Shown here in pieces: positions 26,453-54,899 of a DNA stretch of 64,000 nucleotides. Origin of the DNA: an uncultured Gemmatimonadaceae bacterium (GTDB taxonomy: Bacteria; Gemmatimonadota; Gemmatimonadetes; Gemmatimonadales; Gemmatimonadaceae). Positions within the stretch are counted from its first letter, which is position 1. Each line of letters starts with the position of its first letter. Below the pieces are notes generated by a model. It ran no database searches and was not told where the DNA came from. It saw only the letters and a program-made list of their open reading frames with translations. Location of the stretch: the NCBI GenBank assembly GCA_963751275.1, contig CAVVTZ010000007.1:384001-448000 (forward strand), written 5' to 3'. A program made the position numbers and the translations under genes.

Positions 26453-26525
26453 GGGGCTGTAGCTCAGCTGGGAGAGCGCTGCATTCGCATTGCAGAGGTC
26501 AGGGGTTCGAGCCCCCTCAGCTCCA
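26453..26525 (+). tRNA. tRNA-Ala (anticodon CGC), CCA not encoded
   Basis: GGGGCTG/CAGCTCC acceptor with G3:U70; anticodon arm CTGCA-TTCGCAT-TGCAG; GGTTCGAG T-loop. Confidence 0.95.
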
Positions 26526-26556
26526 TAGCAGCCGAATCGCGGGATGCGCCGTTGCA

Positions 26557-26650
26557 CGGTAGGACGTAGAGTTCCAATGAGTGACGTGCCGCAGCCCCGC
26601 AACCAGAATTGATGCCCGCCGCCGATCGGTAGGACGCAGAGTTCCAATGA
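26557..26650 (+). repeat. Pair of 24-bp direct repeats CGGTAGGACGYAGAGTTCCAATGA, 70-bp period
   Basis: Copies at 26557-26580 and 26627-26650, one mismatch. Confidence 0.85.
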
Positions 26651-35391: not shown

Positions 35392-37035
35392 TCAGAACCG
35401 GTAGCTGAGACTCGCGTACAGCTGGTCGTTGCTCTCGAGGCCACCGGTCGTGCGCATTGCGGAGATCAGCAGGTACCACGACCGCGTGAGCCCCACGTCC
35501 GCGTCGAGGCCGAACCACCGCACCATGGTCTGCGGCACGGTCGTGGAGTCGGTGGCCACGATGCGCGGATCGTGCTCCTGCCGCAGGCCGCCGTTGAGCT
35601 CCAGCCGCAGCCGCCACACGGGGCTGAATCCCACGTTGCCCGCATAGAGCCACCCATCGATGGTCTGGCTCGTGTACTTCGTGGTGCGCAGTCGCACGGT
35701 GCCCTGCATCGCGAAGTTCGTCGCGATCCAGCCCGTGTACGACGACGCGGCGCCGTACGCCCCGCCCAGACTCTGCCGCGCATCGCCGCCGATGTGCAGC
35801 GCGCGCATCGGTGCGATCGAGATCCCGCCCCACATCCCCTCGCGGAAGCTGTCGTCGAACGACGTCTCGGGGCTCACGTAGTCGCGGTACAGGATCACGT
35901 TGCGCCGGTTGTCGAAGCCGCCGTACAGACTCACGAAGTCGGTCACCTGCAGCTGCGCAGTGGCGAAGGTGCTCGTGGGCGCGAGCGTGGGCAGTCCCAT
36001 CGCGGCCTTCCATCCGCGATTGTAGTCCACCTCCTGCGTGGCATACAGAGTGAACCGGCGGTCGGAGAAGAACGCCTGCGCGAAGAGGAACTCGCGATTG
36101 AGCGCGCTGCCGTCGTACGAGCCAATGCCGCCCACGGTGAAGGCCCATTGCGCCGCGCCGCCATTCGCGCTGAGCGGCGAAACGGGCGCCTGGTGGATCT
36201 GCACGTAGCCGCCGTACTGTCGTATCTGGCTCGAATAGCCCATGGTGAGCGGATCGGGTTGGGATCCGCCGAAGGCACCGAAGCTCCAGTGCTGCTTCAC
36301 CAGCTCCGCCGTCGCACCGTCGAACAGGCTCACGCTCGAGAGCGCCGACACGTATTGACGCCCCACGGTCATGTGGGCGCCGGACGCCGCGTCCACCCAC
36401 GTCACCGCCGCCTGGTAGACGCGCAGCGCGTCGTCGCTGGTCGTCGTGCCGTCGGGGAGCACGGTGTACGTGCGCCGGCTGCGCGTGTCCAGCGCGAAGA
36501 AGATCGGTGAGCCATTCACCGCCGCGCCGAACAGACTCAGCTCCAATCCCGGCTGTGAGATCCGTCCCGTCGCCGAGTCGCGGCCGGCCACCAGTTGGTA
36601 CGTGACGCCGATCCGCCCGCGGATCCCGAGATCCTTCAGCCGGCTGGGCGGCGGCGCGCCCGACGCCCGCGCCTGCGCCACCTTCACGCTGTCCGCCGGG
36701 AGCTTCGAGAAGCGCACGCTGTCATAGACATTCACCGCCGAGGCGCCGCTCGCGACCTCGCACGCCGCCGAATGCGACGAGAGATACTGCACCTTGAGTT
36801 CCGCGATCACGGCGCCGGCGCGCAGCACCACTACGCGGCTCCCATGCCACACGCCGTCGCGGCTGCCGGCCGAGATGTACACCGACTGCCCGGAGACGTA
36901 CGACACCATCGTCGCGCCGGAGAGCGAGTCGGGGAGCGGCGCCGGCGCGGCGCCGCTGTTCACCGCCTGCGCCGCCACGGCGGGCGCGACGAGCGCCGCC
37001 GCGAACGCGAGCTGCCGCACGACGCGCGCGCTCAT
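35392..37035 (-). CDS. Putative outer-membrane beta-barrel (porin partner of multiheme cytochromes)
   Basis: Signal peptide, small N-terminal beta domain, many amphipathic strands, terminal LYASLSYRF beta-signal; ATGA overlap with the cytochrome gene. Confidence 0.72.
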   Translation of the reverse strand: MSARVVRQLAFAAALVAPAVAAQAVNSGAAPAPLPDSLSGATMVSYVSGQSVYISAGSRDGVWHGSRVVVLRAGAVIAELKVQYLSSHSAACEVASGASAVNVYDSVRFSKLPADSVKVAQARASGAPPPSRLKDLGIRGRIGVTYQLVAGRDSATGRISQPGLELSLFGAAVNGSPIFFALDTRSRRTYTVLPDGTTTSDDALRVYQAAVTWVDAASGAHMTVGRQYVSALSSVSLFDGATAELVKQHWSFGAFGGSQPDPLTMGYSSQIRQYGGYVQIHQAPVSPLSANGGAAQWAFTVGGIGSYDGSALNREFLFAQAFFSDRRFTLYATQEVDYNRGWKAAMGLPTLAPTSTFATAQLQVTDFVSLYGGFDNRRNVILYRDYVSPETSFDDSFREGMWGGISIAPMRALHIGGDARQSLGGAYGAASSYTGWIATNFAMQGTVRLRTTKYTSQTIDGWLYAGNVGFSPVWRLRLELNGGLRQEHDPRIVATDSTTVPQTMVRWFGLDADVGLTRSWYLLISAMRTTGGLESNDQLYASLSYRF

Positions 37036-38513
37036 CCGGCCCGTCCGCGCGGATGGCAGCTGTAGCACGCCTGGCTGTCATAGCGGTAGCCCGACACTCC
37101 GTGATGATTGTTGTTCGTGCTGGTCTGTGAGTGACAGCCGTTGATGCACGAGAAGACGACGTAGTTCGCCGGGTTCGTGTGGCAGGTGGCGCAGCTGCTC
37201 CACCGGCCGTTGTGCGCGCCGGAATAGATCGGGAAGAAGCTCGCGTCGTGATTGAAGGTGGCGCCGAGCCAGGTGGACGTCGTGTGGCAGTTCTGACACG
37301 CCGTGGGGAATCCCGCCGCCGCGTGCGCCGGATTGTTCGTGCCGTTGTAATCGGTGAGGTGGCAGGACACGCACGTCGTCGGCTTGCCGGCGTATACGCC
37401 GTCGCTGTGACAGGCGGTGCAGGCCAGCGGGATGTGCGCGCCGGTGAGCGGGAAGAGCGTCTTCGAATGGTCGAACACCGCGCCCGTCCACGTCGTGGTG
37501 GAGTGGCACGTCTCGCACGTCGTACCGAAGCCGGACGCGCTGTGGCTGGGCGTCGCGGTGTTGTAATCGTTGAGATGGCACGACACGCACGTCGTCGGCT
37601 TCCCCTTGTAGACGTTGTCCGAGTGGCACGCCGAGCAGATGAGCGCGAGGTGCGCGCCGGTCAGCGGGAAGAGCGTCTTCTGGTGGTCGAAGGCCGCGTC
37701 GGTCCAGCGCACCGTACTGTGGCAATCGAGGCACTCGGTGGGGAAGCCGGCCGGCGCGTGGGCGGGCGACGCCGTGCCATTGTAATCGGTGAGGTGGCAG
37801 GAGACGCAGGTCGTCGGCTTCCCCTTGTACACGCCGTCGCCGTGGCACGCGCTGCATTGCACGGCCAGATGCGCGCCGGTGAGCGGAAAGAGCGTGGCCG
37901 AATGATTGAACGTCGAGCGGTCCCACGTCACGGTCGTGTGGCAGGCTTCGCATACCGTGGGGAATCCGGCCGCCTGGTGCGGAGGGTTCACGGTGGCGAC
38001 GTACGCGGGCATGTGGCAGGCCATGCATTCCACCGGCCGTCCGACGAACGTCATGTGCCCCTGCTGCACGGGCGGGTGGCACGACATGCAATCCGCCATC
38101 ACGTGCGCGCCGGTGAGCGGGAAGCGCGTGGTCTGGTGCCGCTGGTTCATGACCGACCGGTCGAGGAAGTTCCTCGGCGAGTGGCACAGCGCGCAGTTCG
38201 ATCCGAGCTCGCCGCGGTGGATGTCCTGGTGGCAGTCCGCGCACTTGGTGCTCGTGCCCTTGAACGTGAGCGACGTGTGGCACGCGCGGCAGTTCGTCTG
38301 CGCGTGGGCCCCCTCCAGCGGGAATTGCTTGGGCGCGTGCTTGAAGCCGGCGCTGATCTTCGCCGGCTTCCAGGCGTCGGGACTGTGGCACGACGCGCAC
38401 GGCTCCTTGAGCTCGCCGTGCGGGTTCGTGACGGTCTGCTGCGCGGGCGCGGACGGCGCCGCGCCGAGCACGCACGCGGTGGCGGCGAGCGCCAGGATGA
38501 TCGCACGGGTCAT
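37032..38513 (-). CDS. Multiheme cytochrome c, 493 aa, 18 CxxCH plus 1 CxxxCH
   Basis: Motifs counted manually; signal peptide; 72-73 aa tri-heme repeats. Confidence 0.93.
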   Translation of the reverse strand: MTRAIILALAATACVLGAAPSAPAQQTVTNPHGELKEPCASCHSPDAWKPAKISAGFKHAPKQFPLEGAHAQTNCRACHTSLTFKGTSTKCADCHQDIHRGELGSNCALCHSPRNFLDRSVMNQRHQTTRFPLTGAHVMADCMSCHPPVQQGHMTFVGRPVECMACHMPAYVATVNPPHQAAGFPTVCEACHTTVTWDRSTFNHSATLFPLTGAHLAVQCSACHGDGVYKGKPTTCVSCHLTDYNGTASPAHAPAGFPTECLDCHSTVRWTDAAFDHQKTLFPLTGAHLALICSACHSDNVYKGKPTTCVSCHLNDYNTATPSHSASGFGTTCETCHSTTTWTGAVFDHSKTLFPLTGAHIPLACTACHSDGVYAGKPTTCVSCHLTDYNGTNNPAHAAAGFPTACQNCHTTSTWLGATFNHDASFFPIYSGAHNGRWSSCATCHTNPANYVVFSCINGCHSQTSTNNNHHGVSGYRYDSQACYSCHPRGRAG

Positions 38514-40519
38514 GGGCGGACCGGTTGAGTGTGGCAGCTCTCGCACTTCGGCGAGAGGCCGCGGTAATCGATCGACGCGCGCGGTGCGCCGGGCGGCGGT
38601 TTGTGGCAGCCGGCGCACGGGACCTTCGCGTGCGCTCCGGTGAGCGCGAACGACGCGTCGCGGTCGTGATCGAAGCGCACGGCGGGCACGAACGCATCGA
38701 GCCCGTGACAGCTCTCGCATCCGCCGGCCGCGCGGCGCTTCGCGAACTGATCGCCGTGCGGGTCAGTGTGGCACGCGACGCACCCGTCGTGCCGCGCCGC
38801 GAACGTGATCGTGGCCGGCGCCTTCGCAAGGATGAGCGTGGACTTGAACGGCGCGGCCTTCATGTCGGTGTGGCAACTCACGCACGGCACCGCGAGATGC
38901 GCCCCCGCGAGCGGGAACGCCGACTTCGCGTGCGCGGCGGCGTCGAACGTCGAGGGCCGGAAGTGCTTCGTGTCATGGCACGCCGCGCAGGTCGCGTACA
39001 GCTTCGCCTCGTCCGCGCGCGTGAAACGCCCGCCGTGCGCATCCAGGTGGCATGCGGCACACGACGTCTCCGGCACCTTGAACGCGACTCTCGCCTTGCC
39101 GAGCCGCTCGGGCGCCGCGAGCGGCGGCAGCCCTGCGCGTCCCACCGAGTGGCACGCCCCGCACGGGATCTCGGCGTGCCGGCCGTCGAGCGCGAGCTTG
39201 AGCGAGGCGTGCGCCTTCGTGGTGTACGTCGTCGGCGTCCAGCCGGCGACCTTGTGGCACGCTTCGCACGCGCCCTTGTCGGAGCGTAATGCGAGCTGGC
39301 CCGCATGATCGTCGGCGTGACAATCGCGGCACACGGCGCGCGCGGGCCGCATTTCGATCTGCTTCCGCGATGCGCCCGCCACCGTCACCGTGCGCGTCGC
39401 GTGGCACGCACCGCACTTCACGGCGGCGTGCTTCCCCTCCAGCGGATACGCGCTCTTCGCGTGCTGCGCCACGGTGTACGTACTCGGGCGGTAACCCTCC
39501 ACGGTGTGGCAGGCGTCGCAGTCCACCGTTCGGCCGGCGAGCGTCGCCTTGCCGGCGTGCACATTGGCGTGGCATCCGTTGCAGCTGCCGAATGCGGGAT
39601 GCATCCCCTGGCTCGGGAATCCGATGTGACAGCTCGCGCACGCGACCGTGGCGTGCCGGCCGCGGAGCGGATAGCGCGTCGCATCGTGATCGAAGGTCTT
39701 CCGGTTGATCGTCTGGAAGCTCGACGTCACGTGACACTTGTCGCACGCCCCGGCGAGGCGCCCCTTGTGCGGGTCCGCGTGACAGTCGGCGCAGTCCGCA
39801 TGGCTCACCGGCTTGAACACCGGGATCAGCGCGCCCTGGTCGTTCGTGCGCGGCGCGAGGCGCGCGGCCGTGTGGCACTTGGCGCACGGCACGTCCGCAT
39901 GCTTGCCCGTGAGCGGATACGCCGAGCTGTCGTGATCGAATCCGCTCGCCGGTTTCCATCCCGTCATCACGTGGCAGGTGAGACACTTGGCGCCGAGCGC
40001 CTTGCGGTGCGGGTCCTCATGGCACGAGAGGCAATCGGTCTCGAGGCCCACCCAGCCGGCGCCGTGCGTGCGCGGCGACAGCGCGGCCACGGGCGATGTG
40101 CGGAATGCCGTCTTGTGGCACGACGCGCATTTCAGATCCGCGTGCTTGCCCTCGAGCGGCCAGCCCGCTTGCCGGTGGTCGAACCGCTCAGCGGAGCCGT
40201 CGGGCCACTTGATGAGGGAGAAGTCCGTGCCGGCGTGATCCGGATGGCAGCTCGCGCACGCCGCCTTCGCGTTGCGCGCGTGCAGTCCGCGTCCGCTCTC
40301 CACGAGCGCGGGGATCTCCTTGTGACAGCTCACGCACGCCTGGTTCATCGCGCCGCTCCTCGTGCCGTGACACTTCGTGCAGTTCAGCGAGCCTTCGAGT
40401 TCCGCATGCGGCTTCGCCAGCGGACCGGGCGAGATCTGCGCCCGGAGCGCGAACGGCACCGCCACCATCGCGAGCAGCACGCAGGCCGCCCGCACCGCGC
40501 TACCCGGCTTGAGCGACAT
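38510..40519 (-). CDS. Multiheme cytochrome c, 669 aa, 23 CxxCH
   Basis: Motifs counted manually; signal peptide ending LRA-Q; FDH...PL.G.H...CxxCH repeats. Confidence 0.93.
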   Translation of the reverse strand: MSLKPGSAVRAACVLLAMVAVPFALRAQISPGPLAKPHAELEGSLNCTKCHGTRSGAMNQACVSCHKEIPALVESGRGLHARNAKAACASCHPDHAGTDFSLIKWPDGSAERFDHRQAGWPLEGKHADLKCASCHKTAFRTSPVAALSPRTHGAGWVGLETDCLSCHEDPHRKALGAKCLTCHVMTGWKPASGFDHDSSAYPLTGKHADVPCAKCHTAARLAPRTNDQGALIPVFKPVSHADCADCHADPHKGRLAGACDKCHVTSSFQTINRKTFDHDATRYPLRGRHATVACASCHIGFPSQGMHPAFGSCNGCHANVHAGKATLAGRTVDCDACHTVEGYRPSTYTVAQHAKSAYPLEGKHAAVKCGACHATRTVTVAGASRKQIEMRPARAVCRDCHADDHAGQLALRSDKGACEACHKVAGWTPTTYTTKAHASLKLALDGRHAEIPCGACHSVGRAGLPPLAAPERLGKARVAFKVPETSCAACHLDAHGGRFTRADEAKLYATCAACHDTKHFRPSTFDAAAHAKSAFPLAGAHLAVPCVSCHTDMKAAPFKSTLILAKAPATITFAARHDGCVACHTDPHGDQFAKRRAAGGCESCHGLDAFVPAVRFDHDRDASFALTGAHAKVPCAGCHKPPPGAPRASIDYRGLSPKCESCHTQPVRP

Positions 40520-41936
40520 CCGGCTCGAGCGGGATCTCCTTCTGCACCATGCGCACGCCCATCCGCTCGAGGAACGCGGAAGGGGGATCGCCGCCGATGC
40601 GGATGATCACGTCGTCATTCGGGAGGATCAGCGCTTCGCCCGCGGCGTCGAGCACCACCACATCGCCGCGGATCTCGCGCACGGTGCTGTTCAACACCAC
40701 GTGCACGGTGCCGAGTTCGACCGCGCGGTCGAGCTTCTGCCGCAGCCGATCCTTGAGGCGCGCGAAGCGGTCTCCTCGATAGCTGAGCGTGACCGTCGTG
40801 CCCGCCTGGTTCGCGAGGCCGAGCACGGTCTCCACCGCCGTGTCGCCGCCGCCCACGACCAGCACATGCCGCTTCGCGAAATCCTCCATCTCCGCCACGT
40901 CGTAGAAGACCTTCCCCAGCTCCTCGCCGGGCACGCCGAGGCGGCGCGCCGTTCCGCGCCGCCCCATCGCGAGCACCACATGCCGCGCGCGGTACTCGTG
41001 CTCGCCCGCGCGCAGACGGAAGAGCCAGCCCTGCCGCGTGATGTCCTCCACGCGGCGCTCGGTCTCCACGCGAAGACCGGTGGTCGCGACGATCTCCTCC
41101 CACGCCTGGAGCAGCGCTTCTTTCGATCCGTCGGCGACATAGAGGTCGCCGTACATCGGGATGTTCAGCGGCTCCGCGAAGAGGAGTTTGTGCCGCGGAT
41201 ACTTCCGCACGCTGTCGGCGAGCGACCCCTGCTCGAGCACCACATAGGTCAGCCCCGAGCGCAGCGCCTCGAGACCGGCGCTGAGTCCCGCGGGTCCCGA
41301 GCCCACGATCGCGACATCGACGGTCGCGTCCGTCGCGACCGGCATCGCGCCGGCGCTCACGGCGCGGCGCACGTGCTCCATCGCGACCTTCCCCTCGTTG
41401 ATCGCGTTCTTGATCAGACCGCGGCCGCCCAGCTCACCCACGATGTACAAGCCGGGAATGTTCGTCTCGAAATTCCCATCGACTTGCGGCACGACCACGC
41501 GGTTCACGGCGGCGCCCGCGGACATCGCGATCGCGCCCACCGGGCACGCGGTCGCGCACTCGCCGTGCCCCACGCAGTGCGCGGCGTCCACGACGGCGAG
41601 CTTGCCTCGCATCGTGATCGCGTTGGGCTCCGGGCAGGCATGCACGCACGTCCCGCATCCGACGCACATGTCCGAGCGCACGTGCGCGCGCATCGCGCCG
41701 CCGGCGTCGTCCGCCGCGTCGGGCGCGACCGCCGCGGCCACGACGTCGAACAGCTGCAACGGTACCCGGCAGCCAGGGCACACCACCGCACCCGCCGGCA
41801 CCGCGGCCCGGCATCGCGGGCACGCGGCGATGCGCGGCCGTGCCGGACGCGCCGCCGCGGAGCCGGCCGGCTTCCGCAGGTGGAAGTAGACCGACAGCGA
41901 GGTGATCACCAGGAACCCGAGCGTGGTCCAGAGCAT
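40500..41936 (-). CDS. Membrane-anchored 2x[4Fe-4S] FAD/NAD(P)H oxidoreductase (TrxR/FNR-like)
   Basis: N-terminal TM; CPRC..CPGC ribbon; CVGCGTCVHACP and CVGHGECATACP; GSGPAG; GGGDTA...SYR. Confidence 0.85.
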   Translation of the reverse strand: MLWTTLGFLVITSLSVYFHLRKPAGSAAARPARPRIAACPRCRAAVPAGAVVCPGCRVPLQLFDVVAAAVAPDAADDAGGAMRAHVRSDMCVGCGTCVHACPEPNAITMRGKLAVVDAAHCVGHGECATACPVGAIAMSAGAAVNRVVVPQVDGNFETNIPGLYIVGELGGRGLIKNAINEGKVAMEHVRRAVSAGAMPVATDATVDVAIVGSGPAGLSAGLEALRSGLTYVVLEQGSLADSVRKYPRHKLLFAEPLNIPMYGDLYVADGSKEALLQAWEEIVATTGLRVETERRVEDITRQGWLFRLRAGEHEYRARHVVLAMGRRGTARRLGVPGEELGKVFYDVAEMEDFAKRHVLVVGGGDTAVETVLGLANQAGTTVTLSYRGDRFARLKDRLRQKLDRAVELGTVHVVLNSTVREIRGDVVVLDAAGEALILPNDDVIIRIGGDPPSAFLERMGVRMVQKEIPLEPDVAQAG

Positions 41937-41941
41937 GCGCG

Positions 41942-42976
41942 CTACCGGAACCAGGTGGCGCCCAGCCACACCACCACCGCCACGTGGATCACCACCGCCA
42001 CCAGCGCGGTGATCGCGAAGGGCCGGTGCGCCACGTGCCAGAAGCGGAACACCTTGTGCGTCGCGTCGAGCATGCGCGCCTGCTGCTCGAGCGCCATCTC
42101 CCGGCTCGCCAGCGCCACCACCTGCTTCAGCGCGGCGCGCTCGGCGGCGCGGTTCTTGTGACGCTGCACCTTGAAGGAGAAGGAGCCTTCGTCCATCAGC
42201 TTGGTCCAGCGCCGGCGCAACTCGCGCGTCATCCGCCAGCGCGCGAAGTCGTTCGTGAGGAGTTGCGCGAAGGCGCGGCCGGCGCCGGTGGACGACGGCA
42301 GCGTCGCGCCGATCGCGAGCGTGCGCTCCACGGTCGGCACATCGACGCCGAGCGCTTCGGCGATCTCCTCGACGATCGCGCGGCGGCGGCCGGCCACTTC
42401 GTCGCGCGTCAGCTCCACGCCGGTCTTGCTGCGCGGGATCCGCACGTACAGGTAGCGCCCGACGATGCCGCTCGCGACCACCACCATCATGGAGAGGAAG
42501 CCGAGACCGATGAGTCCCTCGAAGCGCCACGCGGCGTGGATCGCGAGCAGCAGGGGCAGGCCGAGCGCGACCAGGATGTGCACGTCGAGCCACTTCGCCA
42601 CGGTGCCGGTCCACGCGAGCGACTTGTACTTCTTGCGCAGGGGGTAGAGCCAGAGGAAGAGAAAGATCGCGAGCGCGAGAATGCCGGCCGACTGGCCGAT
42701 GTACCCCGACGGGCGGAGCCATACGTGGAGCGGCGAACGCACGCGCTCCGCGGGCGACAGCGAGTAATAGCGCCAACCCGCGATGTTCGCGGCGGCGAGC
42801 ACGCCGAGGATGATGGCGAGCCACGGCCCGCCGCCGGCGCGTGCCTCGGCGCGCTCGCGCGGCGGTCTCGCCGGTCGCGGCGACGCCGATGGGTTCGCGG
42901 TGGTTCCCGGCGCGGCGGGGATGCGCAGGTCTCGCGGAGGGATGTTGGCCCTCGCGAGATTGGAGCGTTCAGTCAT
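41942..42976 (-). CDS. Inner-membrane protein, putative di-heme cytochrome b (ferric-reductase-like)
   Basis: About 5 TM; two helices each carry a His pair 14 residues apart (HILVALGLPLLLAIH, HRPFAITALVAVVIH). Confidence 0.7.
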   Translation of the reverse strand: MTERSNLARANIPPRDLRIPAAPGTTANPSASPRPARPPRERAEARAGGGPWLAIILGVLAAANIAGWRYYSLSPAERVRSPLHVWLRPSGYIGQSAGILALAIFLFLWLYPLRKKYKSLAWTGTVAKWLDVHILVALGLPLLLAIHAAWRFEGLIGLGFLSMMVVVASGIVGRYLYVRIPRSKTGVELTRDEVAGRRRAIVEEIAEALGVDVPTVERTLAIGATLPSSTGAGRAFAQLLTNDFARWRMTRELRRRWTKLMDEGSFSFKVQRHKNRAAERAALKQVVALASREMALEQQARMLDATHKVFRFWHVAHRPFAITALVAVVIHVAVVVWLGATWFR

Positions 42977-43038
42977 CGCCTTCGTGGCTCGGGAAGTGCG
43001 CGACGCCGCGGATCGGCGTGGCTTCGATCCCCTTTCAT

Positions 43039-43054
43039 TGCAATGGGTGGGCCT
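43039..43054 (-). promoter_or_regulatory. Candidate sigma54 (-24/-12) promoter of the cytochrome operon
   Basis: Minus strand AGGCCCACCCATTGCA = GG-N10-GC with TTGCA. Confidence 0.45.
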
Positions 43055-43160
43055 CGGCGATCCGCTCTATACCGAGCTGTCAAATCATTGTGGCGCAACG
43101 CTTTGAATAAGCACGGCCGCGTGATCATGCTCTACGCGGTAAGACGCGGCGTTGCAGGGC

Positions 43161-43177
43161 TGTACCGAAACGGTACA
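43161..43177. promoter_or_regulatory. Palindromic transcription-factor site
   Basis: TGTACCG-AAA-CGGTACA in the divergent intergenic region. Confidence 0.55.
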
Positions 43178-43335
43178 ACACCAATTGTGCGGTGGATTTG
43201 CGGGTTAAAAGTGACGCGATATTGTCGCGAAACTGCCAAGCCCCTCGTCGCACCGATCTGGAGGCCTCTGTCGCCTAGCCGAATGTCATTGCCGGCGCCC
43301 ATACTTGGCGCCGTCGATTCACTCCGAGGCCGCTG

Positions 43336-44529
43336 ATGCCGTTCGTCCGCACCCGTCTTTCCGCGATGATGTTCCTCCAGTATTTCGTCTGGGGAGCGTG
43401 GTTCGTCACGATGGGCACCTACCTCGGCACGACGCTGAAGTTCAGCGGCGCCGAGATCGGGCTCGCGTACGGCGCGACCGCGATCGCCGCGATGATCTCG
43501 CCCTTCTTCGTGGGCATGTTCGCGGACCGGTTCTTCGCGAGCGAGAAGCTGCTCGCGGTGCTGCATCTCCTGGGCGGCGCGCTCCTCTGGCTCGCATCGC
43601 GCGCGGGCACCTTCAGCACGTTCTATCCGCTGATCATCGCGTACGCGCTGTGCTACATGCCGACGCTCGCGCTTTCGAACTCGATCTCCTTCGACCACAT
43701 CGGCGACCCGCAGCGCGATTTCCCGCGCATCCGCGTGCTGGGGACGATCGGGTGGATCGCTGCGGGTCTTGCGGTGGGCCGGCTCGGCCTCGAAGCGACC
43801 GCCGTGCCGATGCAGCTCGCCGCGGGCGCCTCGGTGCTGCTCGGCGTCTTCTCGCTCGCGCTGCCGCACACGCCGCCGCATGCTGCCGGCAAATCGCTCG
43901 CCGTGCGCGATGTCCTCGGCCTCGACGCGCTCTCACTCATGAAGGATCGCTCCTTCGCGACGTTCGTGATCGGCTCGCTGCTGCTCTGCATCCCGCTGCA
44001 GTTCTACTACGCGTTCACGAATCTCTTTCTCAACGAGATCCATCTCGCGGAGCCCGCGACGAAGATGACGCTTGGTCAGGCTTCGGAGATCGGCTTCATG
44101 CTGCTCTTGCCGTGGTTCCTCACGCGCATGGGCGTGAAGCGCATCCTGTTGCTGGGCATGGCCGCCTGGGCGCTGCGGTATTTCTTCTTCGCGCAGGGCA
44201 ACGCGGGCTCGCTGGTGTGGATGCTCTACGCCGGCATCCTGTTGCATGGCGTGTGCTACGATTTCTTCTTCGTGACCGGACAGATATACGTGGACCAGCG
44301 CGCCGGTCTCGCGGTGCGCGCGGCGGCGCAGGGATTCCTCGCGTTCATCACGCAGGGCGTGGGACTGTTCATAGGCGCGTGGGCGTCGGGTGCCGTGGTG
44401 GATGCATATCGCACGGCGGATGGGGGGCACGATTGGCACGCGATATGGCTCGTACCGTCGGCGGGGGCGCTGACCATCCTGCTGGTGTTCGCGTTCCTCT
44501 TCCGGCCGCAGCCGCGCGTTGCGGCTTAG
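43336..44529 (+). CDS. MFS transporter, NupG/XapB nucleoside-permease family
   Basis: [48 protein letters not shown]. Confidence 0.9.
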
Positions 44530-44540
44530 GCATCTGGAAC

Positions 44541-44672
44541 GAGCAACAAACTGCTTTGACAGGATGACAGGATGAACAGGACAAGGACGGGATGACGGCC
44601 TGATCGCGATCAGGCCGTCATCCCGTCCTTGTCCTGTTCATCCTGTCATCCTGTCAAAGCAGTTTGTTGCTC
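44541..44672. repeat. 132-bp perfect palindrome with ACAGGATG-type subrepeats
   Basis: 66-bp arms, no spacer, between convergent genes; related to 63471-63610. Confidence 0.9.
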
Positions 44673-44674
44673 CT

Positions 44675-45910
44675 TCACGGTCTCCATTTTCCTTGGGCCA
44701 CCGCGGGGATGAAGGAATCCAGCCCCCTCGGCGGAAAAGTGACCGTCTTCCCCTGCTCCGCGCTCATGTATCCCGCCATGAGCATGCGCACGACATCCAG
44801 CCCATCGTCGAAAGTGAGGCGCGGAGTCTCGAGTCCGAGGAACGCGCGCACGAAGTGACGATCCTCCGCCTCGTAGCCGTACGCGACCGCTTCGTTCGCC
44901 ACCACCGGCATCTGCCCGGTCTCGGCGTTCTGCTTCTCGACGAGATCCTCGCCGCTCTTCGCGTTCACTTCGCGGCTGAAGAACAGCTTCAGCCCGCTGT
45001 CGAGGGTGTTCCACGTCATCGAGTACTCGGGCCCGAGCAGCTCGGCGGACAATCGCAGCCCCGGACCCACGAAACTCCACGACGTGGTCGCTTCGCCGAT
45101 CACGGTGTGACCGTCGGCGGTCTCGAACTCGATCATCATGCTCGCGAAATCCTCGGCCGGCGTCTTCGTGTAGTCGACCTCCTTGCCCATGCTCGCGCGC
45201 AGGCGCTTCGCGTATTCGGGTCGCGACCATTTCAGGCTCGCGATGTGCGCGGTGATCTTCACCGGCTTCACGCTCGACAGCGGCTTCCCCGGCGCGGTGA
45301 GCAGATGCCGCACCATGAGCGCCGAGTGGCACATCATGTCGTTGAGCACGCCGCCGCCCTGCAGTTCGCCGCGCCAGAACCACGGCATGTGCGGGCCGCT
45401 GTGCTCCTCGGCGGCGCGCGCGAGGTACGGCCGTCCGGTCGCGGCGGCGCCGCGCTTCCAGAGCAGCGAGTGCCCGGTCTCGACCTGCGGCGCGAAGATC
45501 TGATTCTCGAGATACGCGGTGGCGAGGCCGGCCTTCGCCGCGAGATCGCGCACCTTGGTCGCCTCGGCCACGTTGCGCGCGAGCGGCTTCTCGCAGGCGA
45601 GTCCTTTGAGTTCGCCGCGTCCCTTCTCGAGCGCGTGCACGATCTCTTCCACGTTCTCGATGCGCGCCTGGTTCGGGCCCGTGAGCCAGATCGCATCGAT
45701 CGCCGGATCGGCGACCATCTCCGCGATCGAGCGGTACGGCTTCGCATCGCCCACATCCAGCTCGCGCGCGTACGCGGCCGCCGACGCGGCGTTCTTCGCG
45801 TTGGGACTCCATACGCCACGCACGTCCCCCTCGCGTACGCCGCGCCAGCCGAGCATGTGGAAGCGCGCGTTGAATCCACTGCCAATGAAACCGACGCCGA
45901 GCCGTTTCAC
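44675..45910 (-). CDS. Gfo/Idh/MocA family oxidoreductase
   Basis: GFIGSGFNA, CEKPLA, GGGVLNDMMCH; GTG 45910 overlaps the upstream stop. Confidence 0.88.
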   Translation of the reverse strand: MKRLGVGFIGSGFNARFHMLGWRGVREGDVRGVWSPNAKNAASAAAYARELDVGDAKPYRSIAEMVADPAIDAIWLTGPNQARIENVEEIVHALEKGRGELKGLACEKPLARNVAEATKVRDLAAKAGLATAYLENQIFAPQVETGHSLLWKRGAAATGRPYLARAAEEHSGPHMPWFWRGELQGGGVLNDMMCHSALMVRHLLTAPGKPLSSVKPVKITAHIASLKWSRPEYAKRLRASMGKEVDYTKTPAEDFASMMIEFETADGHTVIGEATTSWSFVGPGLRLSAELLGPEYSMTWNTLDSGLKLFFSREVNAKSGEDLVEKQNAETGQMPVVANEAVAYGYEAEDRHFVRAFLGLETPRLTFDDGLDVVRMLMAGYMSAEQGKTVTFPPRGLDSFIPAVAQGKWRP

Positions 45911-46543
45911 TTTCGCGTGGGTCTCGCGTCCATCATCGCATCGTTCACGCCAAGTTTTTCGAGCGCGGCGGGCGGGCAGCCGTTCCACTCGGCCACCGCC
46001 TTGTTCCCGAGGTACTGCACATCCTTCCATCCCATCGCGCTCGAGAAGAAGCCCGGACGCGGTCATGTCGCGGAAGCGCGAGAAGAACGCCGCGCCCTGG
46101 CTGTACTCCGGCTTCGCCTTCTTGGGCCACGCGATGTCATCGAGCAGCTGTCGGCGTTCGGCATCGGTGCACGCGGTGAACGGCTTGCCAAAGCGATCCT
46201 CGCAGGCGAGATCGAGCCATGCGAGCCCGCCGCGCATCGCGGTGCGCGTCATGTCCGACGTGTTCGCGTCCGCGAGTATCCAGTCCATGAACTCGGGGAC
46301 CTTCGCGTCGGTGGCGCTGCCCGAGCGCTCGTCGCGCGGGATCACATAGTCCACGAGCACCACCACCGTGGCCCACTCGTGGCGATTGAAGAACTTCGGC
46401 GCGTACGGCGCCGCGCTGGTCTCCGCCAGGCTCTTGAGATGCTCGGCCGCGCGCGCTGTTTGCGCGGAGCTCCACTCGATCGCGCCGATCGCTGGCGCGG
46501 CGGCGAGCCACTTCATCATCGCGCGGCGCGAGATGCGGCTCAT
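45907..46543 (-). CDS. Gluconate 2-dehydrogenase subunit 3 family (Tat-exported), frameshifted near 46052
   Basis: SRRAMMK Tat motif, IPRDERSGSATDAKVPEF, GGLAWLD; GFFSSAMGWKDVQYLGN continues in the next frame. Confidence 0.85.
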
Positions 46544-48228
46544 AGCGCCCCCGCCGCGCGCTGCTGCGCGATGTACTCGCTCGTGCGCATCGAGAGGGCG
46601 AGGATCGTCCACGTGGGATTCTTGTCGGCTTGCGACACGAACGGGCCGCCGTCGGCGACGAAGAGGTTCTTGCAGTCGTGCGCCTGGCAATGCGCGTTGA
46701 GCGCGCTCGTCTGCGGATCGTTCCCCATGATGACGCAGCCGAGCTCGTGGATGATCCGGCCGCCGGGCGCGATGCCGTAGCCCTGTTCCTTCGTGGGCAT
46801 CGGATCGAAGACCGTGCCGCCCATGTCGGCGATGAGCGCGCGGAACGTCTCCTGCATGTGCTTCACCTGATTCAACTCGTGATCGCTCCATTTCCAGTGG
46901 AAGCGGAGCACCGGAATGCCGTAGCGGTCCACGACGTTCGGATCGAGTTCGCAGTAGCTGTCGGCATTGGGGATCATCTCGCCGCGGCCGGAGAAGCCGA
47001 CCGTCGCGCCGTAGTAGCGGCGATAATCATCCTTCAACTGCTTCCCGTAGCCGCCGCCCGGCGGGTATTCCTGAATGCCGCCCATGAATCCGTAGCCGGG
47101 CGAATCGAGGCCGCCGCCCATCTCAATGTGATATCCGCGCGGGAAGTCGAGCTTGGCGTTGTCGAGCCACCAGGGCGAATAGATGTGTGCGCCGCCCACG
47201 CCGTCCTCGTTGTGCGGCACGTGGTCCATCATCTTCGGGATGAATCCGCTCACGCCCGCGCCGGTGGTGTCGGTGAGGTACTTGCCCACCACGCCGCTCG
47301 AGTTCGCGAGCCCCTGCGGAAAGAGCGACGACTTCGAATTCAGCAGGATGCGCGCGGATTCGCACGCGCTTGCCGCGAGCACGACCACGCGCGCGCTCGC
47401 GTGGCGTTCGGTGTTCGTGGTCTTGTCGATGTACGCGACGCCCTGCGCGAGCCCGTCCGCGCCGACCGTCACCTCGCGCGCCATCGCATTGCACACGAGC
47501 GTGAGCTTCCGCGTCTTGAGCGCCGGCGCGATGAGCACATCGGGGCTCGAGAAGTTCGACGCCGTGCCGCAGCCGCGCCCGCATTGCCCGCAGTAGTGAC
47601 ATGCCGCGCGGCCGTGGATGGATTTCGTGATGATCGAGAGCCGCGACGGGATGCACGTGACGCCGAGGCGGTCGCACGCCTGCTTGATCATCAGCTCGTA
47701 GCAGCGCGGCTTGGGCGGCGGGAGGAATTTCCCGTCGGGGTGATTCGGCAGCCCCTCGATGCTGCCGAACACGCCGATGAGTTCGTCGACCTGATCGTAG
47801 TAGGGCGCGAGATCGTCATAGCCGATCGGCCAGTCGTCGCCGAGTCCGTCGCGGCTCTTCCCGCGGAAATCCTCGGGACCGAAGCGCAGCGAGATCCGCC
47901 CCCAGTGGCTGGTGCGTCCGCCGAGCATGCGGGCGCGCCACCAGTCGAAATTCGTGCCGGGCGCGCGCGTGTACGGCTCGCCCTCGATCTCCCAGCCGCC
48001 AATGCAGCCGTCGAACTCGCCGAAGGGTTTCGTCTTGGTGGAGCCGCCGCGCCGTGGCGAGGAATATTCCGGCACGAGCATCTTGGAGTCCTTCGTGGCG
48101 TACCACTCGGGCCCGGCCTCGAGCAGGAGCACGTTCGCACCCGCTTTCGTGAGGACGTACGCCGCCATGCCGCCGCCGGCGCCCGAGCCGACGATGCACA
48201 CATCGTATGTCGTGTCGGCCTTCCGCAT
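46540..48228 (-). CDS. GMC family FAD oxidoreductase (glycoside 3-dehydrogenase-like)
   Basis: GSGAGGG, LGGRTSHW, CHYCGQCGRGC Fe-S motif, HELG, KNPTWT. Confidence 0.9.
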   Translation of the reverse strand: MRKADTTYDVCIVGSGAGGGMAAYVLTKAGANVLLLEAGPEWYATKDSKMLVPEYSSPRRGGSTKTKPFGEFDGCIGGWEIEGEPYTRAPGTNFDWWRARMLGGRTSHWGRISLRFGPEDFRGKSRDGLGDDWPIGYDDLAPYYDQVDELIGVFGSIEGLPNHPDGKFLPPPKPRCYELMIKQACDRLGVTCIPSRLSIITKSIHGRAACHYCGQCGRGCGTASNFSSPDVLIAPALKTRKLTLVCNAMAREVTVGADGLAQGVAYIDKTTNTERHASARVVVLAASACESARILLNSKSSLFPQGLANSSGVVGKYLTDTTGAGVSGFIPKMMDHVPHNEDGVGGAHIYSPWWLDNAKLDFPRGYHIEMGGGLDSPGYGFMGGIQEYPPGGGYGKQLKDDYRRYYGATVGFSGRGEMIPNADSYCELDPNVVDRYGIPVLRFHWKWSDHELNQVKHMQETFRALIADMGGTVFDPMPTKEQGYGIAPGGRIIHELGCVIMGNDPQTSALNAHCQAHDCKNLFVADGGPFVSQADKNPTWTILALSMRTSEYIAQQRAAGAL

Positions 48229-48233
48229 CGCGC

Positions 48234-49026
48234 TCAATTCCCCGCGTCGGGCAGCTGGCGCACCCAGAATGTTCCGGTAGCGCACCGGATAGCTGTGGTC
48301 CTGCAACAGGATCGGCAGCTTATCGGGCATGGGCGCATACGGCGGCCGGCGCTTGTACGCGGTGGGACCGGTGAGCACCGCATCGCTCTGCACGAGCACG
48401 CCGTTTTGCACCACCGTCACCCGCGCGGCGCACTGGAGCGTGCCGTCGAGATTGAACCGCGGGCAATGGAAGATGATGTCGTACGTCTGCCACTCGCCGG
48501 GCGGCCGGCTCGCGTTCACCATCGGCGGATACTGGCCGAACACCGATCCCGCGGCGCCATCGGCATACGTGGGATTCTCGTACGAATCGAGCACCTGCAC
48601 CTCGAAGGCCGACATGAGGTACACGCCGCTATTGCCGCGCTCCTGGCCCTCGCCCGTCGCGGGCGTGGGCGTGCGCCACTCCACGTGGAGCTGCACGTCG
48701 CCAAAGCTCTGCTTGGTCTGGATGTCGCCGGTCTTGGCGACGACCTCCATGTAGCCGTGCTCCACCTTCCATTTCGCCGGCGCTCCCGCGCTGTCGCCGC
48801 TCGCCCACTGTGACAGATCCTTTCCGTCGAAGAGCACGATCGCATCACTCGGCGGCGCGACCGGCTGCCCGCCGGGCGCGGGCTTCACCACCGGCGGCTG
48901 CGGGCGGTCCATCGAATGCTGCGGATACGCCGTGACGACCGGCGAGGGCAGGGTCGGGCATTGGGCGCGGATCTGCGCAGCAAGGATCGGCGAGAGAGCA
49001 AGGATCGCGAGGCGTGGATGCATCAT
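48234..49026 (-). CDS. DUF1080 (3-keto-disaccharide hydrolase family) secreted protein; last codons frameshifted, giving an apparent fusion to GMC
   Basis: PPSDAIVLFDGKDL, HVEW, GNSGV, EVQVLDS, GEWQTYDI, LQDH...YRNI(W); deleting one T gives a stop at 48234. Confidence 0.85.
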
Positions 49027-49086
49027 CGGCGTCCGCAAAGGAAGGAAGGCAATTATGCACTCGTGCTTGGCCGGCTACAAGCGCGC

Positions 49087-49324: not shown

Positions 49325-51670
49325 TTGACTTCGCCGCTCCAGGATCAGCTTCAACGCACGCTCGGCGACGGCTACGCCATCGAACGCGAACTCGGCGGCG
49401 GCGGCATGTCGCGCGTCTTCGTCGCGACCGAGAAGGCGCTCGGCCGCCGCGTCGTGATCAAAGTGCTCCCGCCCGATCTCTCGGCCGCCGTGAGCACCGA
49501 GCGCTTCCGGCGCGAGATCCTGCTCGCGGCGGGACTGCAGCACGCCCACATCGTGCCCGTGCTCACCGCCGGCACCTCCGATGGCCTGCCGTACTTCACG
49601 ATGCCCTACGTGGACGGCGAGTCGCTGCGCGCCCGCCTCGAGCGCGACGGCACCGTGCCCGTTCGGGATTGCATCGCCGTGCTCCGTGACGTGTCGCAGG
49701 CGCTCGCCTATGCCCACGAGCGCGGCGTGATCCATCGTGACATCAAGCCGGACAACATCCTCCTCAGCGGCGGCGTCGCGATGGTCACCGACTTCGGCGT
49801 GGCCAAGGCGATCAGCGCCGCCGGCGGCGACAGCACGCTGACGTCGGTGGGTCTCGCGCTCGGCACCCCGGCGTACATGGCGCCGGAGCAGGGCACGGGC
49901 GATCCCACCAGCGACCGGCGCGCGGACATCTACGCGCTCGGTGCGGTCGGCTACGAGATGCTGTGCGGCCGCACGCTGTTCCCGGGCCGGTCGCCGCAGC
50001 AGACGCTGATGGCGCACGCGGTGGAGGCGCCGAAGCCCGTCGGCGAGTGCCGCCCCGACACGCCGCCGGCGCTCGCCGCGCTCATCATGCAGTGCCTCGA
50101 GAAGGATCCGGCCAAGCGGCCCGCCTCCGCCGCGGCGCTGCTGCAGTCCATCGACTCCGTGATGAGCGGCGGCACCGCGATCCGCGCCGCCATGCCGCGG
50201 CGGCGTCGCACCGCCGTGGCCGGGCTCATCGCGCTCGCCGCCGTGATCGCGCTCGCCGGCTACTTCGCCGCGACGCGCCGCGCGCCCCCGCTCCCGAGCG
50301 AGCGGTCGATCGCCGTGCTGCCGTTCGATCCCCTGGGCGGCAAGCCGGAGGACGAATACTTCGGCGACGGCATGGCGGAAGAGCTGATCACCGCGCTGAG
50401 CAAGGTGCCCGGATTGCGGGTCGCCGCGCGCAGCTCGGCGTTCGCGTTCAAGGGGAAGAACGAGGATGCGCGCAGCATCGGCCGCCAATTGAACGTGAGC
50501 GCGGTGCTCGGCGGCACCGTCCGCCGCGAGGGGAAGCATCTGCGCGTCACCGCCCGCCTCGAGTCCGCGGACAGCGCGCGCGAGATCTGGTCGGAGACCT
50601 ACGACCGCAACGAGACCGACGTGTTCGCGGTGCAGGACGAGCTCACGCGCGCGATCGTCGGCGCCTTGCAGCTGCGCCTCACGCCCAGCAGCGGCGCCGC
50701 GATCGCGAAGCGCGGCACCGCGAACATCGAGGCCTACAATCTCTACCTGCACGGTCGCTTCTTCTACGAGAAACGGAGCGAAGACGGCCTCGTGAAGGCG
50801 GCCGACAACTTCTCGCAGGCCATCGCGCTCGATTCGAATTATGCGGCCGCATACGCCGGCCTCGCCGATTCGTACAGCCTGCTCGCGACCTTCGGCTTCC
50901 GCGCGCCGCGCGCGATGTATCCGAAGGCCAAGCTGGCCGCGCTCCGGGCGCTCGCGCTCGACAGCATGCTCGCCGAGGCGCATACATCGCTCGGCTTCAT
51001 CCAGCTGTTCTACGATTTCGATTACGAGAGCGGCTCCCGCGAGCTCACACGGGCGATTGAGCTCGACCCGCACTACGCGCCGGCGCGGCTTTTCCGCTCG
51101 TGGTATTATGTGGCCGCCGGCCAGCTCGATTCCGCGGTGCGCAATGTGCAGCGGGCCAAGGCCGACGACCCCCTTTCGCTGATCATCAATACGCGCCTCG
51201 GCACGATGCTCTTCTGGACGCGGCAGTACGATTCCTCCGCCGCGCAGCTGCTCCACACGCTCGAACTCGACTCCACGTACGCCCTGGCGCACAGCCAGCT
51301 GTCGCGCGCGTACCTCATGCTGCACCGCTGCAAGGATGCGATCCGCGAAGCGCAAAAGTACAGTGCGGTGGTGGGCAACTACGAGAGCGCCAATCTGGGC
51401 TATTCGGCCGCCGTGTGCGGCGACACCGCGCTCGCGCGGCACGAATTGCAGTCGCGCCTCGACGAGCTGAAACGGCGCTACGTCTCGGCCGATGTGATCG
51501 CCCGCCTGTATGCCGGCCTCGGCCAGAAGACCGAGGCACTCGACTGGCTCGAGAAGGCCTACGACGAGCGCACCTGGTCGCTCTTCCTGCTCAAGGTCGA
51601 ACCGATGTATGACAACCTTCGGGGCGAACCGAGGTTCCAAGCGTTAGTCACCAAGATGCGCTTGCAGTGA
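49325..51670 (+). CDS. Ser/Thr protein kinase with TM, TolB-like and TPR domains
   Basis: GGGGMS, VIK, HRDIKPDN, DFG, GTPAYMAPE; SIAVLPF; TPR helices. Confidence 0.93.
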   Translation: MTSPLQDQLQRTLGDGYAIERELGGGGMSRVFVATEKALGRRVVIKVLPPDLSAAVSTERFRREILLAAGLQHAHIVPVLTAGTSDGLPYFTMPYVDGESLRARLERDGTVPVRDCIAVLRDVSQALAYAHERGVIHRDIKPDNILLSGGVAMVTDFGVAKAISAAGGDSTLTSVGLALGTPAYMAPEQGTGDPTSDRRADIYALGAVGYEMLCGRTLFPGRSPQQTLMAHAVEAPKPVGECRPDTPPALAALIMQCLEKDPAKRPASAAALLQSIDSVMSGGTAIRAAMPRRRRTAVAGLIALAAVIALAGYFAATRRAPPLPSERSIAVLPFDPLGGKPEDEYFGDGMAEELITALSKVPGLRVAARSSAFAFKGKNEDARSIGRQLNVSAVLGGTVRREGKHLRVTARLESADSAREIWSETYDRNETDVFAVQDELTRAIVGALQLRLTPSSGAAIAKRGTANIEAYNLYLHGRFFYEKRSEDGLVKAADNFSQAIALDSNYAAAYAGLADSYSLLATFGFRAPRAMYPKAKLAALRALALDSMLAEAHTSLGFIQLFYDFDYESGSRELTRAIELDPHYAPARLFRSWYYVAAGQLDSAVRNVQRAKADDPLSLIINTRLGTMLFWTRQYDSSAAQLLHTLELDSTYALAHSQLSRAYLMLHRCKDAIREAQKYSAVVGNYESANLGYSAAVCGDTALARHELQSRLDELKRRYVSADVIARLYAGLGQKTEALDWLEKAYDERTWSLFLLKVEPMYDNLRGEPRFQALVTKMRLQ

Positions 51671-51755
51671 GCCGCGACACCGCGCGGCGCACCGCCTCGT
51701 AGTGCGATGGAGCAGGCAGTAGCTTCCCGGGTATACCGGCGGAAAGGGGTCGTGC

Positions 51756-54899
<3,144 letters not shown>

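Follow-up and report, generated by a model that had tools for sequence, protein, structure and literature searches.

A five-gene porin–cytochrome cluster with a putative NADPH-linked flavoprotein in an uncultured Gemmatimonadaceae bacterium

Here, we describe a cluster of five genes, called A to E, in the genome of an uncultured Gemmatimonadaceae bacterium (GenBank assembly GCA_963751275.1). The cluster lies in a 64,000-nucleotide stretch of contig CAVVTZ010000007.1 (positions 384,001 to 448,000), called the window, and coordinates are counted from the first letter of the window (Table 1). The genes encode a predicted diheme cytochrome b, a flavo-iron-sulfur protein, two multiheme cytochromes c, and a predicted outer-membrane β-barrel. 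We lean toward the view that their products form a single trans-envelope electron conduit of the type called PCC3, a predicted porin–cytochrome c cluster, and that the membrane protein A is fed directly by B, a putatively NADPH-dependent flavo-iron-sulfur protein, rather than by quinol.

Table 1. Features of the five-gene cluster and its upstream region, with positions in the window (aa, amino acids)
Feature	Position	Strand	Product or content	Predicted role
Gene A	41942..42976	-	Inner-membrane protein, 344 aa	Predicted diheme cytochrome b
Gene B	40500..41936	-	Membrane-anchored FAD/NAD(P)H and ferredoxin-motif protein, 478 aa	
Gene C	38510..40519	-	Signal-peptide cytochrome c, 669 aa, 23 CxxCH	Predicted periplasm-spanning wire
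Gene D	37032..38513	-	Signal-peptide cytochrome c, 493 aa, 18 CxxCH and 1 CxxxCH	Predicted barrel-associated or outer cytochrome
Gene E	35392..37035	-	Predicted outer-membrane β-barrel, 547 aa, C-terminal Phe	
Intergenic region	42977..43335	none	Between A and a divergent major facilitator superfamily (MFS) transporter gene	Presumed promoter

The five genes follow one another from A to E, with a 5-bp gap at the first junction and overlaps of 20, 4, and 4 bp at the others. These open reading frame (ORF) coordinates bear out an initial annotation, made from the letters of the window, that described five co-oriented genes overlapping or lying 5 bp apart. The same annotation counted 42 heme motifs; there are 41 CxxCH motifs, and 42 is reached only if the single CxxxCH site of D is included. 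The CxxCH motifs in the 1162 aa of C and D are not a product of chance, because the genome-wide background, in six frames, is 0.038 per 1000 aa; this density likewise rules out chance ORFs. Scans of the region upstream of A for sigma-70 promoters, terminators, and FNR boxes returned no match.

Gene A specifies five hydrophobic helices, an SGIVG motif, and two W-x3-H-x13-H motifs (H133/H147 and H317/H331). The four motif His residues, which make up the two His pairs recorded by the initial annotation, are invariant in an alignment of 69 homologs. A matches the published definition of the PCC3 inner-membrane protein (IMP): approximately 300 aa, five transmembrane (TM) segments, SGxxG on TM4, and WX3HX13H on TM3 and TM5 (PMC5566968; here and below, statements from the literature refer to the available parts of each source). 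A is predicted to be a diheme cytochrome b whose 140-aa basic loop would face the cytoplasm. Charges along the sequence suggest that the N terminus lies inside, in which case H133/H317 would sit close to the cytoplasm and H147/H331 close to the periplasm. The FRD/NOX families of ferric reductases and NADPH oxidases likewise have two bis-His pairs with HX13H spacing on two helices; six TM segments, another trait of these families (PMC12525009), are not found, as A has five. Pfam model PF01794 gives weak matches in 20 of the 69 A-family members (best E 6e-4) and is a precomputed annotation on 7 long B fusions, described below; a match of A to PF01292 is weak and below the cut-off. By analogy, A may resemble a ferric-reductase membrane domain in how it works, with membership in the FRD family not established.

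Gene B combines an N-terminal membrane anchor, a zinc-ribbon-like insert, two ferredoxin motifs, and a permuted FAD/NAD(P)H domain of the YpdA/thioredoxin reductase (TrxR) type. Residues 204–470 align to residues 1–270 of YpdA/Bdr (E 5e-32), whose structures 7A76 and 7A7B are the closest solved relatives in the PDB. Residues ~149–190 align to the FAD segment at the C terminus of thioredoxin reductase (E 5e-4) and weakly match the genome's own YpdA-like paralog. As read from these alignments, the flavin fold of B is circularly permuted, its C-terminal FAD segment having moved to the front. The permuted motif order is invariant in all 69 aligned family members (60 of 69 when scored by a simple pattern match). 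Two identities were considered and rejected. First, B is not a YpdA/Bdr protein: the TIGR04018 (YpdA) model gives 167.8 bits against a cut-off of 339.9, a score obtained, as for all domain and family models run on B and D, with slightly misplaced ORF ends, and the domain order is non-canonical. Second, B is not a thioredoxin reductase: the NADPH domain lacks a redox-active CxxC, and none of the 69 B-family sequences has such a motif after the FAD motif. A conserved Y/H-R-x-x-x-F-x-R motif resembles HRRxxxR, the motif for the 2'-phosphate of NADPH. TrxR-like proteins that lack CxxC act as ferredoxin/flavodoxin reductases (PMC8564101 and a preprint on YpdA). B shares with YpdA/Bdr and TrxR-like ferredoxin-NADP+ reductases both the missing redox CxxC and an NADPH-type basic motif; unlike them, it is permuted, membrane-anchored, and fused to ferredoxin motifs.

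The initial annotation described B as a TM-anchored 2x[4Fe-4S]/FAD/NAD(P)H enzyme. The anchor and the FAD/NAD(P)H domain stand. The two [4Fe-4S] clusters are unproven because the second ferredoxin motif, CxxHxxCxxxCP, carries His in place of Cys; this His is present in 68 of 69 homologs, with six other Cys invariant, and in 11 of 69 the first motif lacks the second Cys. The zinc-ribbon-like CxxC..CxxC insert is present in 21 of 68 homologs. All 68 have the N-terminal hydrophobic segment (66 with a Kyte–Doolittle value >= 1.6), the region after the segment is net positive in 66, and none of the 68 carries a twin-arginine translocation (Tat) motif. Together, the anchor, the charge, and the missing Tat motif point to a cytoplasmic location for the catalytic part of B.

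The two cytochromes differ in how their heme numbers vary. C carries its 23 motifs at 29 aa per heme, with seven FPLxGxH-like repeats, and 48 of 57 relatives share this heme count of 23 (range 20–23). D has 26 aa per heme and five FPLxGxH repeats, and its relatives have from 12 to 46 hemes. This combination of a fixed C and a variable D fits the PCC3 pattern, in which the periplasmic cytochrome is fixed and the extracellular one variable (PMC10734462). Judged by hydropathy only, C, D, and E all begin with hydrophobic signal-like segments. Three operons (L050, L056, and L084) contain a duplication of D and E, such that two cytochrome–barrel pairs lie behind one IMP and flavoprotein. Membership of the cytochromes in the MtrA and MtrC families was rejected: TIGR03508 (DmsE/MtrA) gives 34.8 and 28.6 bits against a cut-off of 192, and TIGR03507 (MtrC) gives 17.8 bits against 209.

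E is predicted to fold into a barrel of 22 strands that bears a small β domain at the N terminus (mean pLDDT 90.7), in agreement with the initial reading of a barrel ending in Phe. E belongs to no family in Pfam or NCBIfam, and 1046 relatives were found at E <= 0.001 among 50% representatives. MtrB aligns to the model with Z 14.5, and a Foldseek search ranks ushers and porins at the top, with TM-scores <= 0.47.

The genes occur together. Among 301 genomes of the phylum, A (at E <= 1e-10) was found in 65, B (at E <= 1e-60) in 68, and E in 57, with none of the three in 232; B is present in all 65 genomes that have A, and A and B are both present in 54 of the 57 that have E, counts that are not independent, as the genomes surveyed are related. 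The co-conservation on which the initial annotation depended is thus borne out. In 68 stretches that had been picked around known matches, B is divergent in 36, directly after A in 14, after the cytochromes and barrel in 9, and before A in 3; 6 stretches lack A or B. Among distant loci that a single query with E had failed to detect, 10 of the 10 with sufficient length contain a barrel belonging to the same family (profile E 1e-17 to 1e-28). Of the 13 loci selected from GTDB by a match to E, 9 have exactly the order of the window, Acidobacteriota among them, and 4 are cut short or rearranged; full B homologs were found in 5 of 5 genomes searched, 3 of which contribute loci to those 4. When metagenome loci were picked by A alone, B was present in 62 of 80 and in all 24 with adequate flanks, and every part was present in all 9 long loci. 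In a second phylum (Acidobacteriota by record title), A matched in 35 of 201 genomes. Finally, plasmid pEMTOL02 of the cultured bacterium Emticicia oligotrophica has the complete set of five genes, ordered as in the window and lying behind ccsA, with cytochromes of 23 and 40 hemes. The plasmid cluster (NC_018749.1 75998-90781) is divergent from a set encoding an extracytoplasmic function (ECF) sigma factor, a β-barrel, a Rieske protein, DUF5777, YceI, and a cytochrome c. On this genomic evidence, the flavoprotein B is a real fifth part of the system.

Gene fusions provide the strongest evidence that B is the partner of A. A search for long homologs of B gave 609 matches among 8000 candidates, and the best 120 of the 609 were classified. 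Of these 120, 93 also contain an A-type domain (91 in the order B-A and 2 in the order A-B), and 92 of the 93 retain both His motifs; the fusions form 17 clusters at 60% identity. Multiheme domains occur on 13 others, 11 as B-TM-cytochrome, and 14 are of other kinds. In the eleven (P0273-P0281, P0324, and P0370), the flavoprotein appears to be joined through one hydrophobic segment to a cytochrome of 20–34 hemes, and some other long B homologs have tetratricopeptide repeat (TPR) or FHA domains. A B-A fusion is present as a single chain in the cultured bacterium Anaeromyxobacter diazotrophicus (WP_176067241.1). A tree of 47 rows unites the six sampled B-A fusions in one group (95/83) and places the two A-B fusions outside it, which suggests that fusion took place at least twice. 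Either order is compatible with a B on the cytoplasmic side. The fusions surfaced only with B as the query; a long-homolog search with A alone returned 2 proteins, neither a flavoprotein fusion. The fusions support the proposal of the initial annotation that a pyridine-nucleotide module is part of the system. They do not decide the direction of electron flow or the role of quinone.

How does the cluster relate to known systems? MtrCAB, MtoAB, and Geobacter Pcc are fed by quinol via CymA, ImcH, or CbcL (cf. PMC6295460). Like the cluster described here, they place a barrel and multiheme cytochromes across the outer membrane; unlike it, they use another barrel family, and no DmsE/MtrA or MtrC membership is found here. 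PCC3 was predicted as a four-gene proteobacterial cluster (PMC5566968), and a 2025 preprint regards it as still functionally unverified. By layout and motifs as described by He et al. 2017 (PMC5566968), including those of the membrane protein, A, C, D, and E match this four-gene core. Common to both are the five-helix IMP with SGxxG and two WX3HX13H motifs, the porin, the repeats, and a fixed cytochrome of ~21–27 hemes accompanied by one of variable length, at 22–39 aa per heme (PMC5566968, PMC10734462); the PCC3 porin of Leptothrix cholodnii has 22 strands, as predicted for E. Unlike PCC3, the present system has a fifth co-conserved, often fused NAD(P)H flavo-iron-sulfur subunit, and its lineages are Gemmatimonadota, Acidobacteriota, Bacteroidota, and Myxococcota rather than Proteobacteria. 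No characterized complex is matched: PDB sequence searches with A and D found nothing, and neither the Mtr models nor the YpdA model reach their cut-offs.

Redox proteins beside such clusters have appeared in print. Specifically, PCC4 and porin-less clusters of an IMP, a multiheme cytochrome (MHC), and an "other redox protein" likewise set an IMP and an extra redox protein (412–805 aa) beside multiheme cytochromes (PMC5566968 Suppl. Table 6). Their cytochromes are smaller (4–18 hemes), most lack a porin, and the redox protein is left unnamed in the available part of that source. Two distant modules found here (L214:8807-11275 and L215:5313-7919), in which an IMP-like domain stands behind apparent cyclic-nucleotide-binding and ferredoxin domains, beside an 8-heme cytochrome and a B-like gene, resemble these porin-less clusters. 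Similarly, in a 2026 study of metagenome-assembled genomes from ghost-rock karst, 7 of 11 PCC group 1 clusters have a "ferredoxin-NADP+ reductase" gene beside a porin (~20 strands)–cytochrome cluster, and functional coupling was suggested (PMC13264449). Compared by text description, these differ in having one large decaheme cytochrome gene of 4–5 kb, and the available text describes no IMP, fusion, or mechanism. What appears to be new is the fifth flavoprotein subunit and its fusions, the PCC3 core and neighboring redox or ferredoxin-NADP+ reductase genes being known (PMC5566968 Suppl. Table 6; PMC13264449). The literature searched, which left most subscription journals outside, contains no description of the five-gene unit, the permuted flavoprotein, the fusions, or extracellular electron transfer (EET) in Gemmatimonadota; the initial annotation had likewise known of no demonstrated EET in this apparent lineage.

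The notion is that the five proteins act as a relay. NADPH would donate hydride to the FAD of B, and single electrons would pass through the two putative Fe-S centers of B to A, reaching first the heme b on the cytoplasmic side (H133/H317) and then the heme b on the periplasmic side (H147/H331). The 23-heme cytochrome C would carry electrons across the periplasm. Subsequently, cytochrome D, housed within the 22-strand barrel E or resting on it, would pass them to an outside acceptor, for instance Fe(III) minerals, humics, or a different cell. Gene content, motifs, co-conservation, fusions, and the modeled folds of A and E are the observed basis of this scheme; its cofactors, topology, contacts, direction, and acceptor are inferred. 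A and B together would be akin to a two-component NADPH oxidase or ferric reductase with a different flavin fold. As in NOX/FRD and MsrQ–Fre, a cytoplasmic NAD(P)H flavin module would feed trans-membrane bis-His hemes (PMC12525009); unlike those systems, the dehydrogenase here is of the TrxR type with Fe-S centers, and electrons would leave through a multiheme wire and a barrel. MsrQ, a member of the FRD family, offers a precedent, in that quinone cannot be its donor and cytosolic Fre was proposed instead (PMC12525009). Outward electron flow would be helped by the membrane potential and would dissipate it. Because outward flow would spend proton-motive force, the system would be a redox valve or a low-potential reductase rather than a means of energy-conserving respiration, and it may serve iron mobilization or redox balancing under low oxygen.

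Several observations weigh against an NADPH-fed conduit, along with the relatedness of the genomes counted above. The AlphaFold model of A (pLDDT 92.2), compared with known structures by VIA-align, matches only generic helix bundles; the best is a designed diheme protein (Z 10.0, rmsd 3.0, 103 aligned), and STEAP4 is among the others (Z 7.9). PF01794 gives A itself 10.1 bits against a cut-off of 28. The host genome has only one secretin match, and a search for sequencing runs listed no RNA runs and four DNA runs with shares <0.1, so expression data were not found. Moreover, among 16 close Acidobacteriota loci, B is nearby in 11 and absent from the stretch in 5, and only 1 of those 5 genomes has a full-length B elsewhere. 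Three B-less Acidobacteriota IMPs form one clade in the 47-row tree (support 98/99). Because of these loci and this clade, the membrane-protein family can apparently work without a neighboring B, and four-gene, PCC3-like versions exist inside the family.

These B-less clusters speak for an alternative that we regard as unlikely: the system is an ordinary quinone-linked PCC3, in which the quinone pool is the redox partner of A and B forms a side branch, acting as an NADPH:quinone entry point or as a reductase for heme maturation or repair. A bears the full PCC3 IMP signature, that IMP was hypothesized to be quinone-active (PMC5566968), and MsrQ binds ubiquinone (PMC12525009). Fusion, too, means partnership and not exclusivity. 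Against a side branch stand the presence of B with A in 65 of 65 phylum genomes and the fusion of the two in 93 of the best 120 of 609 long homologs. In addition, the His pairs of A are predicted to reach opposite faces of the membrane, so that A would cross it by itself.

We consider it improbable, and somewhat more so, that electrons are kept in the envelope. In this scenario, A and B would reduce periplasmic cytochromes, as a capacitor or to supply enzymes, and the barrel would admit a soluble substrate, such as a metal chelate, or anchor the cytochromes. Both cytochromes have plain signal-like N termini, and inspection of D revealed no lipoprotein signal. E resembles transporter barrels, its best structural matches being 22-strand TonB-dependent transporters (Z 18.7, rmsd 4.4, 359 aligned). 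Porin-less clusters of IMP, MHC, and "other redox protein" exist (PMC5566968), with similar distant modules found here. What argues against confinement to the envelope is the tight co-occurrence of E (54 of 57) and the same-family barrel in 10 of 10 distant loci of sufficient length. The variation in D (12–46 hemes, versus 20–23 in C) and the duplication of D with E as a pair fit a D that reaches outward from E.

TrxR-like ferredoxin-NADP+ reductases are reversible, and the same chain could in principle run inward, with extracellular donors (Fe(II), minerals, or partner cells) reducing NADP+. PCC3 first came to light in Fe(II) oxidizers (PMC5566968) and is transcribed in Sideroxydans. We nonetheless give an inward wire very little credence: it would run doubly uphill, against the membrane potential and toward NADP+, whose potential is below that of common Fe(II) donors, making electron transfer from external donors to NAD(P)+ thermodynamically improbable, and the host appears to be a heterotroph that respires oxygen.

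That view of the host comes from its heme-copper and bd oxidases; the genome also encodes the PntB transhydrogenase and has ccm genes, the cytochrome maturation genes for which the initial annotation had proposed to look. The ccmE gene is split over two frames (C9:594744-595038), probably by assembly indels, and ccm integrity is not proven. Two of three matches to heme-copper oxidase subunit I are likewise split over two frames (C6:17289-18655; C9:343534-344872), again probably by assembly indels. A second porin–cytochrome-like cluster (C9:597972-604642), outside the window, immediately follows the ccm operon and precedes a [NiFe]-hydrogenase operon with a cytochrome b. Labeled from sequence, it comprises an 8-heme lipoprotein-like frame, a 17-heme membrane-anchored frame, an aromatic-rich 511-codon frame, and a further multiheme frame. 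In the window, the divergent MFS gene, of the nucleoside:H+ symporter family, is followed by a sugar-oxidation set in two long merged frames (43336-49038): GMC oxidoreductase, gluconate 2-dehydrogenase subunit 3, Gfo/Idh/MocA, and 3-keto-disaccharide hydrolase. Two apparent Ser/Thr kinase-TPR genes, a type typical of Gemmatimonadota, follow at 49325-54899. A short ORF at ~26464-26560 yields the kind of translation expected when a tRNA gene is read as protein.

To our knowledge, characterized Gram-negative EET starts at the quinone pool, and no known bacterial metal-reducing wire uses a quinone-free NADPH route. We tentatively suggest, as a possibility somewhat short of even, that the cluster represents a widespread quinone-independent EET system, a "NOX plugged into a nanowire", that would use NADPH and the membrane potential to place low-potential electrons at the cell surface. 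Such a system would occur in about one-fifth of sampled Gemmatimonadota and also in Acidobacteriota, Bacteroidota, Myxococcota, and Planctomycetota, oxygen-respiring soil bacteria included, and would move on plasmids with its own heme-attachment gene. Cultured carriers of the genes, Emticicia oligotrophica DSM 17448 (five genes and ccsA) and Anaeromyxobacter diazotrophicus (B-A fusion), make the idea directly testable. If true, an NADPH-fed wire would suggest that the PCC3 membrane protein is a transmembrane conduit, and it would bring lower-potential acceptors within reach, for redox balancing or iron mobilization instead of respiration. Phyla that are abundant in soil and freshwater would, in that case, have a role in the redox cycling of metals and humics.

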